Part shown: positions 5,155 through 63,235 of the stretch, piece by piece | Numbering within the stretch: the first letter of the stretch is position 1 | Layout: every line of letters begins with the position of its first letter | DNA from: Eledone cirrhosa | Taxonomy: Eukaryota | Assembly (NCBI GenBank): GCA_964016885.1 | Contig: OZ024748.1 | Location: 17,360,001-17,424,000 of the forward strand | Direction: 5' to 3' | DNA: 64,000 nt | Translations under genes and position numbers: made by a program | Notes under the pieces: generated by a model | Databases searched by the model: none | Told to the model about the DNA's origin: nothing | The model's input: only the letters and a program-made list of their open reading frames with translations

Positions 5155-5219
5155 TATTTTATCTGATGAGAGCGTACCAAAGTTATTTTTGGTACACTTG
5201 AAATACATATAATAAAATA
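5155..5219 (+). ncRNA. Type I hammerhead ribozyme (family shared with 27049 and 63128)
   Basis: tattttat-CTGATGA-gagcgtaccaaa..tttggtacactt-GAAA-tacatat-A-ataaaata; 8-bp stem I. Confidence 0.8.
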
Positions 5220-5280
5220 AATATGGTTTTATAAATATAGTTTCCATTTATTAATATCATTTATATATATATATATATAT

Positions 5281-5883
5281 ATCATCATCATCATCATCAT
5301 CGTTTAACGTCCATGTTCCACGCTTGCATGGGTTTGGACGGGAGTTTTCCCACTTGAGGCAAGAGTGGTTGTCTTGCTCGCGTAGGACTGTCTGGCGGGT
5401 TTTCTACAGTTAGATGCCCTTCCTAACACCAACCACATTTACAGTGTGGGGCTGGGAGGTTTTTACCGTGTTGCCTACACGGCCACATTACAGCGTGGAC
5501 TGTCTGGCAGGTTTTCTACAGCTGGATGCCCTTCCTAACACCAACCACATTTACAGTGTGGGGCTGGGAGGTTTTTACCGTGTTGCCTACACGGCCACAT
5601 TACAGCGTGGACTGTCTGGCAGGTTTTCTACAGCTGGATGCCCTTCCTAACACCAACCACATTTACAGTGTGGGACTGGGAGGTTTTTACCGTGTTGCCT
5701 ACACGGTCACATTACAGCGTGGACTGTGTGTTTTTATGTCGTGACACCTACACAATCTCATTTGTTTCGGCCTGGATTTTGTGGCACCAACATAACTTTA
5801 CATTGAAAGGGGCGGTGTGAATGGGGTGGGGGTGGTGTATTTTGTTAGAGATGCCTACTGACTGTAGTAGGTTTTACTTTGTA
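5281..5883 (-). mobile_element. RTE LINE 3'UTR copy with an internal ~112-bp tandem unit
   Basis: Near-identical to 18893-19396, which follows an RTE ORF end; (GAT)n tail. Confidence 0.85.
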
Positions 5884-5971
5884 TATATATATATATATAT
5901 ATATATATATATATATATATATATATACAAAGTAAAACCTACTACAGTCAGTAGTATATATATATATATAT

Positions 5972-6166
5972 ATAATTACAACAGTGACATAGACAGGTAC
6001 TCAAGTGGGTTCTGGGCCCTAATTTCTTCAGCCTGTCAATTGGGGCCCAGAACCCAACGAAACTTAAGTACTTATCTATGTCACTGTTGTTATTATTTAT
6101 ACCAAACTCGTCCTATGCACTGAGTGCTCTTACTCTAGAATATTTCCACTTAACTTTTACTTCAGT
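5972..6166. mobile_element. (TA)n-flanked fold-back HHR element
   Basis: The two inverted arms together reconstruct gacagg-CTGAAGA-..ttggg..cccaac-GAAAC-ttaa-GTA-cctgtc; relative at 23516-23625. Confidence 0.7.
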
Positions 6167-6455
6167 ATATATATATATATATAGGAAGGATAAAAGGACG
6201 ATTTATTATTCCTTCATTGCATTTATTGATAGGTGACGCGCGTTTTGCCACTGATCAGCTCAAGGTTCGATCTATATCGATCCTATCCGACTCGACGGAC
6301 CTTCCCAAAATGCTATTAGAAAATGTATAGCTCTATACATCATCACAGAAGTGAACCTAAACATCGAGTGCTCACCCGGGTGAACCTGCAGTAACTCCTA
6401 GTTACACCCCCTGGATATATATATATATATATATATATATATAGATAGATATATG

Positions 6456-6682
6456 AAGGCGTGTGGCTAAGTGGTTAGAGAACTGGATTCGCAATCGTGA
6501 GGTTGTGAGTTCGATTCCTGGACTGGGCAATGCGTTATGTCCTTGAGCAAGACACTTTATTTCACGTTGCTCCTTCTACCTGGAGTTGCGACCGATAGAT
6601 AGTATTAGCAATACGAAAGACCAATGGAATCATTGTTTCCTCGGTCCGATTTGACGAAAGTCGATCGACTAAAAAAAAAAAA
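6456..6682 (+). mobile_element. tRNA-derived CORE-like SINE, family 2
   Basis: A box tggctaagtgg, B box gttcgattcc, gtccttgagcaagacactt; copies at 21860, 26143, 27256, 32810. Confidence 0.85.
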
Positions 6683-6946
6683 TATATATATATATATATA
6701 TATATGTTTGTGTGTGCGCATTAGTTAGGGGTGTAATAATAGTTACAGGCGGCACCACATTTGAAGCACTCAATGCTGTTATTAGGACCGTTTCGTTTGG
6801 TTGTCTTCCAGAGTTACAGCTGTAGTGTGCAGAGAGTAAATAGATTTAAAAGAATCAAAGTTCAGAGTTACAGCATATGTACAAAATTTATTTGCATATT
6901 ACAATTGTATTGATATTTGATCAGCTCAGGGTCCAATCAAGGTGGC

Positions 6947-6977
6947 GGGGCCCGACTCAGTTTCAACCACTCATCAG
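6947..6977 (-). ncRNA. Minimal hammerhead core, 5' stem I lost to (TA)n
   Basis: Reverse complement CTGATGA-gtggtt-GAAAC-tga-GTC. Confidence 0.6.
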
Positions 6978-6987
6978 TATATATATA

Positions 6988-59607: not shown

Positions 59608-59825
59608 GTAGATTGTCAGAATTGGTAAAGCATCAGATAAAAATGTCCTTGTGATATTTGTTCAGCCTTTTTACATTCTGAATTCAAATCCCACAGAGGT
59701 CAACTTTGTCTTTCATCCTTTCAGAGTTGATTCAATAAAAGTACCAGTCAAATACTGAGGAGGCCAGTTCAATCAACTTTGCCCTCATCCCGTATATGCT
59801 GGCCTTCTACCTGAAGTAGAACTTA
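59608..59825 (+). mobile_element. Diverged Meta-type SINE
   Basis: ttcaaatcccacagaggtcaactttgtctttcatcctttcag...aagtaccag. Confidence 0.7.
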
Positions 59826-60021
59826 GTTTTATTAAAGCCACTATATTGGTATATATAGTTCTGTTTTTATGATAAGTTGTGATTTGAGGGTAAATTTGGC
59901 TATTATTTCTAGTACATTCTCACTCCTCTTCCTTCAAAAGTGCCATGGGAATCCTTTTAGTAAAGTTACTATATGTTTCATGAAGTTAAGCTGAGCAATG
60001 CTTTTGGTCTCCCCAAAACAG

Positions 60022-60910
60022 CCACCATAATCATCTCCACCACCACCACCACCACCATCACCACCACCTCCACCACCACCATCACCACCACCTCCACCAT
60101 CAACGCCTTCACTATCACCTCCACCACCATCATCATCATCATCTCCACCACCACCATCACCACCACCTCCACCACCTTCACTATCACCTCACCACCATCA
60201 TCATCATCTCCACCACCACCACCATCATCACCTCCACCACCACCATTATCATCTCCACCACCACCATCATCACCTCCACCACCACCATCATCACCTCCAC
60301 CACCACCATCATCACCTCCACCACCACCATCATCACCTCCACCACCACCATCACCACCATCACCTCCACCTCCACCATCATCACCACTTCCACCATCACC
60401 ACCACCTCCACCATCACCACCACCACTATCACCACCACCATTATCACCTCCACCACCATCACCTCTACCACCATCATCACCACCACCATCACCACCACCT
60501 CCACCACCACCTCCACCATCACCATCACCACCATCACTATCACCTCCACCACCACCATCACCTCCACCACCAACAACAACATCAACAATAACAACAAAAC
60601 CAAGAACAATCCACACTTCCGCCAATACAACAAGTACAAACACCACAACTACAACAGTTAAATCAATCACAAGATGGAGGATGATGATGATGATGGGAAA
60701 GAAGATGATCAACAACAATAGCATCACTAGCAACATCACAACAACACTAACACCACTAACAACAACAGCATCACTAACAACACTAGCAACAATAACAACA
60801 ACAACACTAACAACAACAACAACAACATCACAGCAACCCGAACACCACTAACAACAATAACAACAGCACCACTAACAACAACAATAACAGCACTACTAAC
60901 AACAACAATT
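60022..60910. repeat. (CAC/CAT)n and (AAC)n low-complexity tract
   Basis: Direct reading. Confidence 0.9.
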
Positions 60911-61456
60911 GTATATTCACTATTGTTTCAATTGTATCATTTGCTATTTATACTATCCTCCTTTCATGAGTGAAATTATTTTGTTCTATCCCTGCTTCGG
61001 GTTAAACTGCCCCCTCTCTATTCACTCAATTCTATTACTAACAAAGCTATATAATCTAATCCATCCAAAAACAATGGTATTTTCACTCTGAGAAATTTCT
61101 AGAAGGTATCAGGCTTCTAGATGGCTCCATTATTCATTTGTCACTCTACAAATTGTTTTATATTATTTCAGAGGAAATTTGAAACATTCCTATAGAGTTT
61201 GTCTTTAACTTCATCTCTTTCCCTTCCATTCACCAGCAGGGATCTTTATTCAACTATTTCTGCATTTTGACCAAACAAACTCCTTCTAAATATAACACAA
61301 TATTAATAATTCAGTTATTTAACTAATATAATAAATACACAAATGCTCATATATATACAGTGTACGTCAATGAAATGTATACATACTTCAGGAAAAGATA
61401 TATATATAGAGATAGATAGATAGATAGATAGATAGATAGATATATAGATAGATAGA

Positions 61457-61540
61457 TACAGCATGTCCCCCAAAAATGCATATACATATTTATTAGAATA
61501 CTGTTGAAGTGTGTAAACATTCTTTGTGGGCATCTTGTAT
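61457..61540. mobile_element. Tc1/mariner-type small MITE
   Basis: Related to 2774-2876; TA-flanked imperfect TIRs. Confidence 0.5.
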
Positions 61541-62119
61541 ATATGTTAACAAAGCTTTTTCGAAGATCGAATTAAGGCACAAGTGTATTAGAATAATGAG
61601 AAAAACTCAATGCAAGGATAGTTGCTAAAGCAGCAAAATGCCGTCAATGACAGCGTTGGGTAAAATCTTACCTTAAAAGACAGAAATAAATGTCTAGAAG
61701 TGTGTTGGTCCAGAGAAGTGGTAGGTAGAGAGGAGGGGGAAGAAAATGGAGAAAATGTGAATGGATGAGACAAGATCACACTAACATCATATTATGTCAT
61801 CAGCCCTCATACCAGAATGTAGTTTCGCACAAATTAAATTAGAGGAGACTACAGATGTATACTTGATAAAACAAATAAATTAGATAAGACAGACAGATAG
61901 ATCAGAGGGAGAGAAGTAGGAAGTGTCCGTTCGACACCAAGTCGCAGCTAGAAAGGATAACAAGACCTAGAGCTGCAGAAGTGGCAGCAAGAGCGATATG
62001 TAGAAGGGGAAGAGAAGACAAGAAGCAGAAATAAGGAGAAGGGATATATATATATCAAAGGTACTCAAAATAGTCTCTTACAATAAAATAGCTCTAGGAA
62101 AGAGATTTTTCTGAGGCGT

Positions 62120-62328
62120 ATATTATAATTGAATATAAAAGAGAGATAAACACAGATATATACATATATGTGTTCAAATCGTAAGGGACCAGATTCATTA
62201 AGGCGAAAAAATACTAACTATGGACAATAGGGTTTGCCAGACTCAATTAGAGAGAGAAAGAGAGAACGATTTGAACACATATATGTATATATCTGTGTTT
62301 ATCTCTCTTTATATTCAATTATAATATA
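62120..62328. repeat. ~62-bp inverted arms in a (TA)n-flanked island
   Basis: 62121-62182 vs 62265-62326. Confidence 0.8.
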
Positions 62329-62342
62329 TATATATATATATA

Positions 62343-63235
62343 TGCAAAAGTTTTATTTAAAATTGTAGGGTTACAACGAGTAAATATTTTATAACTGATA
62401 TAAAAGCACTCAACAGGTTTTGGAGTAGGTTTACGATATTAAACAAATGGAAACTATATTTATAAAACCATATTTATTTCATTATATATATTTCAGGGAT
62501 ACCATATTAAAAATATGGTATGCCTTCCTCAGACAAAATACAATATATAAACCGTTTTATAAATAAATTTAACATACCTAGAACAGTGCAACTTCCATTT
62601 AAAAAGTTGATTTGGTAGTGAAAATGTTGAGGACATTTATATATCGGCTGTTTTTTAACTGTATCTCTCCCACCTCGTATGATAGATATTACTCGTTCTA
62701 CCTCTTTTCTCCCACCACATATATCTCTCTCTACCTCTCTTTATTTATCATATTTCTTTCCGTATCCTTAACACTATAACTAAATAAATAAATAAATAAA
62801 TAATTACAGTACCCCCTTCCCTCCTTAATATCTCATTTGTACCGTGATCATCTGTCTCCAAGCTGCCTATCATTTTTCACTCCCTCAATATATTTCTCTC
62901 TCCCATATCTCTTTCTCTCTATCTCGCTCTGTTGCTTTCTTTGCATACATCTCTTCATCTTCTTCTCTAACTGTCCTTAGCGCTATACACTTTCTTTCTT
63001 CTTCTCTTCTTTTTTTCTTCTTTTCTCTTCGTCCTTCTTTTTTAACTGTCCTCAACATTTTCACTACCAAATCAACTTTTTAAATGGAAGTTGCACCAAA
63101 TTTATTTATAAAACGGTTTATATATTGTATTTTGTCTGAGGAAGGCATACCATATTTTTAATATGGTATCCCTGAAATATATATAATGAAATAAATATGG
63201 TTTTATAAATATAGTTTCCATTTGTTTAATATCGT
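62343..63235. mobile_element. Fold-back HHR element (family of 5155/27049)
   Basis: Arms ~62433-62635 / 63046-63235; cores CTGAGGA at 62526-62532 (-) and 63136-63142 (+); helix II ataccatatt/aatatggtat. Confidence 0.85.

Follow-up and report, generated by a model that had tools for sequence, protein, structure and literature searches.

Do the hammerhead ribozyme (HHR) cores that lie between the (TA)n microsatellites of the Eledone cirrhosa genome mark a crowd of independent non-coding mobile RNAs, or are they parts of larger elements? The question is raised by a 64,000-nucleotide (nt) stretch (positions 17,360,001-17,424,000 of contig OZ024748.1, in a genome of 3.0 Gb; the window hereafter means this whole stretch), in which an initial annotation listed 27 such cores and proposed a very large and diverse population of non-coding, (TA)n-targeting ribozyme retroelements mobilized by Penelope-like element (PLE) enzymes. 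Our reading of the window as a whole, held with considerable confidence, is that it combines PLE ends with retrozyme-type parasites. Most traceable motifs are 5′-truncated and often inverted 3′ ends (pseudo-long terminal repeats, pLTRs) of autonomous (TA)n-targeting PLEs. Three families, named here for cores 24721, 49418 and 25859, are retrozyme-type repeats of 310, ~425 and ~465 nt, respectively, with no predicted open reading frame (ORF) of their own.

The predicted type I hammerhead motifs are real and lie far above chance. We used a purpose-built descriptor (CTGANGA, stem II, GAAA, a hairpin or palindromic stem III, UH and stem I), with stem II inserts limited to 90 nt and with a strict and a laxer set of stem II rules, and controlled the window search with 200 dinucleotide shuffles in 300-nt blocks and ten decoy cores. 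Across the whole window, 17 of the 42 CTGANGA sites pass, none passes with any of the decoys, and 14 sites score at least 10, versus a mean of 0.05 (maximum 1) across the shuffles; motif density is well above that of shuffled sequence. Two high-scoring matches, at 37714 and 37762, were discounted as ribozymes, both lying inside a 48-nt minisatellite.

For minus-strand cores the initial annotation gave the leftmost base of the core; C3 sits at +6. Its claim of a hammerhead core at all 27 sites holds in part. The heptamer CTGANGA is present in 26 (18166-, which reads CCGATGA, is the exception), a complete C3-U4-G5-A6-N7-G8-A9, G12-A13-A14-A15.1, U16.1-H17 core in 16, and 14 sites pass the strict and 16 the laxer descriptor, with 20174+ passing when one core mismatch is allowed. 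Ten listed cores fail. By eye, most of these are damaged members of families with complete cores elsewhere: GAAA is lost or changed at 6031, 6977, 19911 and 42307, half of stem I is lost at 26976, 46398 and 58316, and stem I carries a mismatch at 9411. Of the other two, 18172 has a U4C core and 56794 has a stem II insert above the 90-nt limit, probably the sole cause of its failure. The initial list also lacked an intact motif at 34098-, one with a single core mismatch at 22406+ and a variant core at 373-542(-).

Self-comparison of the window reduces the 27 listed cores to ~19 insertions, five cores belonging to one 310-nt array and three pairs being inverted halves of single insertions. By our own count, these cores sort into about 13-15 families, in line with the ‘more than a dozen’ first suggested. 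The accompanying statement that families share no similarity outside the core is wrong, as flanks are 77-94% alike among several cores (9411/42307, 94% over 301 nt; 5163/27057, 83%; 27057/62532, 77%). The initial estimate of one core per 2-3 kb counts listed cores; descriptor passes are fewer in the window and sparser still in the genome at large.

For that wider scale we took a sample of 60 stretches of 10 kb (600 kb in all) at regularly spaced round coordinates; the four largest contigs supplied 40 of the stretches. The sample contains 59 motifs of 22 families (0.8 motifs in shuffles), spread over 30 of the 60 stretches; with 16 descriptor passes in 64 kb, the window is about 2.5 times denser. 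Extrapolation gives 2.9×10^5 motifs per genome (bootstrap range 1.9-4.0×10^5), in keeping with the very large population that had been proposed. Exact matches to eight patterns give a floor of 36,505, comprising 3,410 for the 43249 family, 4,927 for 27057, 2,350 for a further pattern, 4,828 for 49418, 12,734 for 24721, 8,168 for 34098, 7 for 23450 and 81 for 25859, and each reversed-pattern control gives 0. The suggested enrichment of (TA)n flanks is borne out at both scales: distances to (TA)n in the window have a median of 102 versus 240 nt (P=0.014, 20 loci), and (TA)6 lies within 300 nt downstream of 48 of the 59 sampled motifs versus 29% of background positions in the same stretches.

Structural conservation was assessed in one pLTR family of the window, family A, from 29 segments found by a downstream flank motif, minus eight (three without a core, one broken by inversion, three with deletions and one near-duplicate), plus five relatives picked by core, making 26 rows. 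In this alignment, 95.5% of cells are paired (at most 56% in slid controls), both-sided changes occur in 6 of 18 pairs, all within helices II and III, and none of 500 shuffles reached the covariation score. Of 29 families, 21 have a palindromic helix III, a property described for dimeric PLE hammerheads (PMC4209133).

Five hammerhead families reach a Penelope-like ORF in their long copies: 9411/42307 (3 of 3 picked loci), 34098 (4 of 4, with ORFs of 637-821 amino acids (aa) upstream of the HHR in L114-L117), 43249 (4 of 5), 27057 (1 of 5, a second locus sharing the 1.6-kb 3′ untranslated region, UTR) and 46398 (3 of 3 copies, 191-201 nt after the ORF, in L034, one unselected sample). At locus L081 the order is HHR-ORF-HHR, with 416-nt direct repeats at 99% identity. 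The hammerhead lies roughly 40-300 nt before the PLE 3′ end, and each family has its own type I motif. Among the 27 listed cores, six are PLE ends by direct evidence of copies running into an ORF (9411, 42307, 43249, 26976, 27057 and 46398), three by kinship of 81-86% (5163, 62532 and 63136), and seven belong to ORF-less families. The description of these elements as non-coding is not supported as a general reading and stands for the three ORF-less families. The idea that PLE enzymes are the likely motor is supported. The radiation is very large, with a protein match in 12 of the 60 unselected samples. Rfam and Pfam miss these elements, as the initial annotation suspected that standard annotation might.

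By their diagnostic motifs, these PLEs fit the Hydra clade; a first assignment to the Neptune clade was dropped on the Hydra diagnosis of PMC8557442. They have a single predicted ORF, of 713-821 aa, with a YRDD reverse transcriptase (RT) motif and a C-terminal VY..YIG-type motif, and no N-terminal endonuclease (EN). DKT replaces DKG in 3 of 3 ORFs spanning the site, a CxCX5C linker and CxxC and CxH motifs near the EN C-terminus occur in 5 of 5, and a pLTR hammerhead with insertion into (TA)n is present in the PLE loci examined. Neighbors in a protein atlas are HTH_animal, GIY-YIG and RVT_1 clusters from aquatic invertebrates; the PLE protein has 834 homologues at E<=1e-20, and a sequence search of the PDB gave 0 matches. 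The ORF remnant in the window (49838-50740) belongs to the commonest PLE family, ple713, full copies of which encode 713 aa and which yields 57,268 first-look candidates; among the 150 that were scored, identity is 93-97%, the window's own copy excepted. This family carries a predicted hammerhead-like fold with CAG for CUG in the core and a U where the cut would fall; 20 loci (L001-L020) contain 28 instances of it. The literature we searched yielded no U4A core; passages of PMC3088659 mention U4C.

Several further features of the PLE families stand apart from this argument. In the 43249 family the 3′ region is long and rich in microsatellites and contains two hammerheads that are related to each other, at a distance of 1.1-3.4 kb (L085, L087 and L088); L087 is a 5-kb palindrome at 99.3%. 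In the 34098 family inversion is very frequent, with ~154-166 nt from core to core (pattern list of contig C1), which suggests a preferred stall or priming site. A GAGTGCT/AGCACTC-like word recurs by eye between the two 3′ ends in tails of unrelated families (for example, 43150-43170, 47225-47245 and 27175-27190) and is a candidate protein-binding site.

The ORF-less families occupy dispersed loci as tandem repeats of a short unit with a single type I HHR. Among its first 100 matches listed, the 24721 family consists almost only of 310/311-nt arrays, reaching 14 full units. We compared 14 loci: the one in the window, another in the genome sample, and 12 taken from the first 13 clusters listed as complete. 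Unit position 1 is the base that follows the predicted cut. Twelve contain a single inversion, and both single-armed loci end at position 139. In the 11 two-armed loci seen whole, one arm ends at 139 in ten, the exception being L102, where it stops ~14 nt short, and the other ends at 163-170 in all 11. These fixed ends, ~26 nt apart, correspond to a PLE ‘tail’, and the inversion points differ at every locus. In contigs from public sequencing runs, the unit is joined head to tail in 4 of 4 runs, and one run has loose (AT)n ends at 24890, which is unit position 139. This footprint points to one-step copying by a PLE enzyme.

The ~425-nt family of core 49418 has units of 420-430 nt with ends near positions 220 and 276. 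Two of its arrays, L106 and L109, alternate in an ABAB pattern in which A and B differ at 14-18 positions and repeats of the same type mostly at 0. The longest ATG ORF is 30 aa in the 310-nt unit and 68 aa in the 425-nt unit, GC content is 35-36%, and predicted circular folds have z=-4.8 and -7.0, respectively. For the ~465-nt family of core 25859, none of 10 loci had a PLE match upstream, and its 81 matches include only one dimer. We also considered core 49418 as the pLTR of the adjacent ple713 ORF and ruled this out: ple713 has its own, different 3′ end, and 49418 forms ORF-less arrays. Separately, at L004 (1470-1570, reverse-oriented) a nearly full-length ple713 copy is fused at its 5′ end to a ~425-nt retrozyme unit, with ~55 unrelated bases in between; the PLE enzyme may have switched templates here.

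How might such structures form? We propose that the (TA)n-rich window is a landing zone of a large Hydra-type PLE radiation. The RT/GIY-YIG protein would cut (TA)n and prime reverse transcription at two nearby internal RNA sites, one per target strand. This priming chemistry is modeled on PMC11167929, in which both strands of AT-rich DNA are cleaved and then extended by a PLE protein, and two internal RNA start sites yield a PLE-specific tail. Most PLE copies would stop early, leaving a 100-600-nt end that includes the ribozyme; such ends would often occur as inverted pairs, the tail of one being longer. The ORF-less minority families would be retrozyme-type parasites of the same PLE enzymes, an enzyme of this type presumably copying the 310-nt RNA. 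Each 310-nt array would then be one insertion, with copying starting at ~139 and ~165 and passing the ribozyme site many times. Priming at 139-165 of a cleaved linear monomer would give less than one full unit; arrays that reach 14 full units therefore need either a circle or an uncleaved multimer. We lean toward a monomeric RNA circle as the template, made by hammerhead cleavage and then ligation; given its palindromic helix III, this hammerhead probably cleaves as a dimer. The fuller scenario, which we rate as an even call, is that the 310-nt retrozyme is young and probably active and that a Hydra-clade PLE dimer, priming on both strands of a cut (TA)n site, copies its circles over and over, with the ABAB arrays of the ~425-nt family reflecting dimeric circles.

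Several observations weigh against this account. First, as to the motifs, no hammerhead model of Rfam reaches its gathering score in the window, where the sole match is the head of a tRNA-like repeat (in an E-value scan, microsatellite matches to miRNA models dominate among the matches listed), and the descriptor and score thresholds are our own. Family A has no double change in helix I, so the expected stem covariation appears in helices II and III and not in stem I, and the signal, drawn from related rows and a structure derived from them, is support rather than proof. Second, as to the PLEs, 11 of the 27 listed cores are untraced, and the loci used for ORF linkage were selected, non-random ones, being widely spaced pairs from pattern lists. 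Pfam finds no RT domain in four long ORFs and in a fifth only a sub-threshold GIY-YIG match, and the N-terminal RWK motif of the Hydra clade reads RWR, RWT or RWI here, with RW kept. Finally, as to the circle, no parent PLE of the 310-nt unit was found among the fetched loci. One haplotype is shared by 4 of 11 310-nt arrays, and homogeneity therefore partly reflects youth. L132, a long ~425-nt array of 23 units, is heterogeneous (mostly 15-50 differences), so that it is, as it stands, no one-step product. In vitro, the anole Poseidon PLE does not need HHR cleavage and uses unprocessed RNA as its main substrate (PMC11167929), and eight of nine Xenopus retrozymes showed no cleavage (preprint 10.64898/2026.07.22.740005).

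These last findings would fit an alternative that is credible although we think it unlikely, in which each 310-nt array is a one-step PLE insertion from an uncleaved linear multimeric transcript, with no circle and an incidental ribozyme. Parent arrays are homogeneous, so linear copies of them would be homogeneous too. However, variants are fixed in every unit and in both arms. Seventy-four of 79 units equal the commonest unit of their own array, both arms share its haplotype, and the 11 arrays represent seven haplotypes with a mean of 2.7 differences. Such a pattern would need repeated passage through a single unit, whereas linear copying with 5′ truncation only shortens arrays; the ABAB arrays, moreover, fit dimeric templates. 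The fixation of new variants across whole arrays thus favors a monomeric circle over either a linear multimer or growth in place.

A second alternative, quite improbable in our judgment, is that the majority of islands represent separate non-coding ribozyme retroelements that are short but complete. The three ORF-less families agree with it, as do the untraced cores, the 23450 subfamily, for which none of the four fetched loci has an upstream ORF on the same strand, and the prevalence of short solo motifs in the genome sample (38 of 59; head-to-head inverted pairs account for 19 and tandems for 6, with 4 belonging to both). Nevertheless, the long copies of five families run into a PLE ORF, and the 5′ ends and inversion distances of these ORF-linked families vary from tens of bases to kilobases, as expected for truncated PLE copies. 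Solo and opposite-strand minimal HHRs have, furthermore, already been taken as truncated PLEs (PMC4209133).

Growth in place, by which a monomer or dimer inserted and the array then expanded through unequal exchange, or was homogenized by assembly, is very doubtful. The Xenopus preprint favors local amplification after insertion, L132 shows local duplications of diverged units, and ABAB patterns can arise in this way too, but in many loci both inverted arms are multimeric and identical, the inversion points differ from locus to locus while the outer ends are fixed, and at L102 a single 15-nt target duplication encloses the whole inverted array (the only clean case, other (TA)n flanks being pure or periodic). 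That the motifs are chance matches in AT-rich repetitive DNA, the reading to which the silence of Rfam and our own thresholds lend themselves, has a vanishingly small probability, refuted as it is by the shuffles and decoys and opposed by thousands of exact copies against none for reversed patterns.

The features of the window on which these readings draw are collected in Table 1.

Table 1 Hammerhead-bearing islands and PLE remnants in the window. Cuts are predicted; a dot marks features with arms on both strands.
Position	Strand	Feature	Relatives or matches
373-542	-	ple713 truncated 3′ end with CAG-core fold	95% to ends of ORF-bearing copies
5095-5262	+	pLTR fragment, family A, core 5163, cut after 5211	83% to 27057 island, 86% to ORF-linked end in L090
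5975-6165	-	Short inverted insertion, broken HHR core 6031, GAAA lost on this arm, untraced	
6880-6990	-	Degenerate long-stem-II HHR core 6977, untraced	Resembles 18760 by eye
9355-9595	+	pLTR of autonomous PLE (4.7-kb unit), core 9411, stem I mismatch	94% to both L081 direct repeats flanking ORF
18060-18200	-	Minimal HHR, U4C core 18172, untraced	Relatives in 6/60 samples
18575-18895	+	Inverted insertion, intact long-stem-II HHR core 18760, cut after 18840, untraced	
19705-20278	.	Old inverted pair, cores 19911(-) and 20174(+), GAAA changed in both, untraced	
23243-23503	-	Short inverted insertion, core 23450, weak pass	Relatives in 8/60 samples
23891-25510	.	One insertion of ORF-less 310-nt retrozyme-type unit; cores 24088-, 24398-, 24721+, 25031+, 25341+; cuts after 24751, 25061, 25371	2 units minus, 3.2 plus, inversion ~24506-24510; outer arm ends, at unit positions 170 and 139, abut (TA)n
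25520-26096	+	ORF-less ~465-nt unit, inverted arm ~25520-25640; long stem III, core 25859, cut after 25934	
26930-27238	.	Inverted family A pLTR pair: 26976(-) cut short by repeat, 27057(+) intact, cut after 27106	94% to ORF-linked end in L090
33999-34170	-	pLTR of autonomous PLE, intact core 34098	Not on initial list
42125-42355	-	Second pLTR copy of 9411 family, core 42307, changed GAAA	
42378-42629	+	HHR core 42387, cut after 42443, itself untraced	Downstream flank kin of 43249 family
43112-43337	+	3′ end of autonomous PLE, intact core 43249, cut after 43294	
46396-46470	+	3′ end of autonomous PLE truncated inside stem I, core 46398	L034 copies
49150-49709	+	ORF-less ~425-nt retrozyme-type unit, short inverted arm, core 49418, cut after 49448	
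49810-51290	+	5′-truncated ple713 copy with inverted tail; 49838-50740 is an RT-thumb/linker/GIY-YIG remnant containing one internal stop; interruption of 3′ UTR at ~51290	
52169-52480	-	GIY-YIG remnant, another PLE family	Pfam GIY-YIG E=0.002, below gathering
56229-57075	+	Partial tandem, core 56794, ~95-nt stem II insert, untraced	Relatives in 3/60 samples
57680-58365	.	Inverted pair (arms 94%), 57881(-) intact, 58316(+) truncated, untraced	Distant family A kin
62345-63234	.	Inverted family A pLTR pair, 62532(-) and 63136(+) both intact, one arm with longer tail	81% to ORF-linked end in L090

Further short palindromic islands without a full core lie between TA tracts at 22097-22189, 35000-35060, 42650-43008, 47117-47208, 58023-58172, 62119-62328 and 63466-63811, and probably represent inverted ends of PLEs or retrozymes that stop short of the ribozyme. 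The segment 34739-35124 matches the ~425-nt family, and 42820-42900(-) is the 3′ half of a 25859-like ribozyme. Repeats of other kinds share the window. Those headed by tRNA-like sequence and resembling short interspersed nuclear elements interrupt islands, as at 23046-23109(-), with related copies at 4660-4940, 26580-26900 and 47690-47985, and several tRNA-headed repeats contain internal 48- or 112-nt tandem expansions (5380-5727, 15850-16259 and 18998-19228). A 22-nt satellite array of ~2.6 kb (38937-41573), with an internal inversion near 40550, adjoins a 200-nt assembly gap. Open frames at 19400-19660(-), 7000-7188(+) and 20552-20839(-) look by eye like 3′ remnants of non-LTR (long terminal repeat) retrotransposons and have no convincing Pfam match.

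All components of this picture have already been published, and the bulk of the motifs is an already described phenomenon at unusual scale; what is new relative to the literature we searched is that scale and the 310-nt footprint. A PLE/circle route for animal retrozymes was proposed in 2020 and argued in 2026, in the text available to us, from co-occurrence and sequence kinship only, whereas the 310-nt family shows a PLE-specific insertion signature directly on an ORF-less element. If the rolling-circle reading is true, each inverted 310-nt array is the record of one insertion. More broadly, candidate enzymes whose ORFs are intact and a defined RNA whose start sites are known form a matched, recently amplified pair in which a circular versus a linear template is testable. 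At least 22 divergent families of natural hammerheads are available in this genome, one of them a CAG-core variant that is fixed in the commonest PLE, and its ~3×10^5 hammerheads exceed any count in the portions of the hammerhead and retrozyme literature compared. Our searches, outside which most subscription papers fell, found no report joining retrozyme, rolling circle, inversion and Penelope, no ‘twin priming’ in related papers, and no hammerhead survey of octopus or other cephalopods; a 2026 octopus repeat annotation gives Penelope-like families and, in the passages available, makes no mention of ribozymes (PMC13282606).

The metazoan PLE minimal hammerheads of Cervera and de la Pena (2014, PMC4209133) resemble those described here in their many divergent, mostly solo families per genome, in opposite-strand pairs 100-700 bp apart, in an extra base after A9 and in palindromic helix III. 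In that work they are taken as truncated PLEs and expected to act as dimers with low activity. Its counts are 2,000-9,000 per genome, as opposed to the 36,505 exact matches to eight patterns and the ~2-4×10^5 extrapolated here, although the descriptors differ. The Hydra-clade PLEs of Craig et al. (2021, PMC8557442) share the single ORF with RT and C-terminal GIY-YIG, the DKT, CxCX5C linker and CxxC/CxH motifs, the pLTR hammerhead, (TA)n targets, 5′ truncation, inverted copies and one-sided tails. In contrast, that clade is described as having few families, generally <3 kb, whereas the elements here measure 3.2-4.7 kb or longer, form a very large radiation and carry a CAG core in their commonest family. 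The supplements of that paper and of the 2026 preprint may hold related families, mollusc ones in the case of PMC8557442.

The ORF-less families resemble the non-LTR retrozymes of Cervera and de la Pena (2020, PMC7229834) and of Li, Clavereau and Pollet (the 2026 preprint), which are likewise ORF-less, low-GC tandem units of 300-470 nt, each with one type I HHR, and range from monomers to long multimers. Both papers propose PLE mobilization and circle-templated tandem cDNA, but neither, in the parts available, reports insertion targeted to microsatellites, inversion at the 5′ end, a pair of fixed internal start sites or haplotypes specific to single arrays. Circular RNA has been shown for coral, mussel and axolotl retrozymes and is a prediction for the families described here. 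The green anole's Poseidon PLE, studied in vitro (Frangieh et al. 2024, PMC11167929), belongs to another clade, has its start sites within the start of the ORF and can dispense with HHR cleavage. Nevertheless, it cuts and extends both target strands in AT-rich DNA, and its two internal RT start sites give rise to the PLE-specific tail, like that seen at the ends of the 310-nt arrays.

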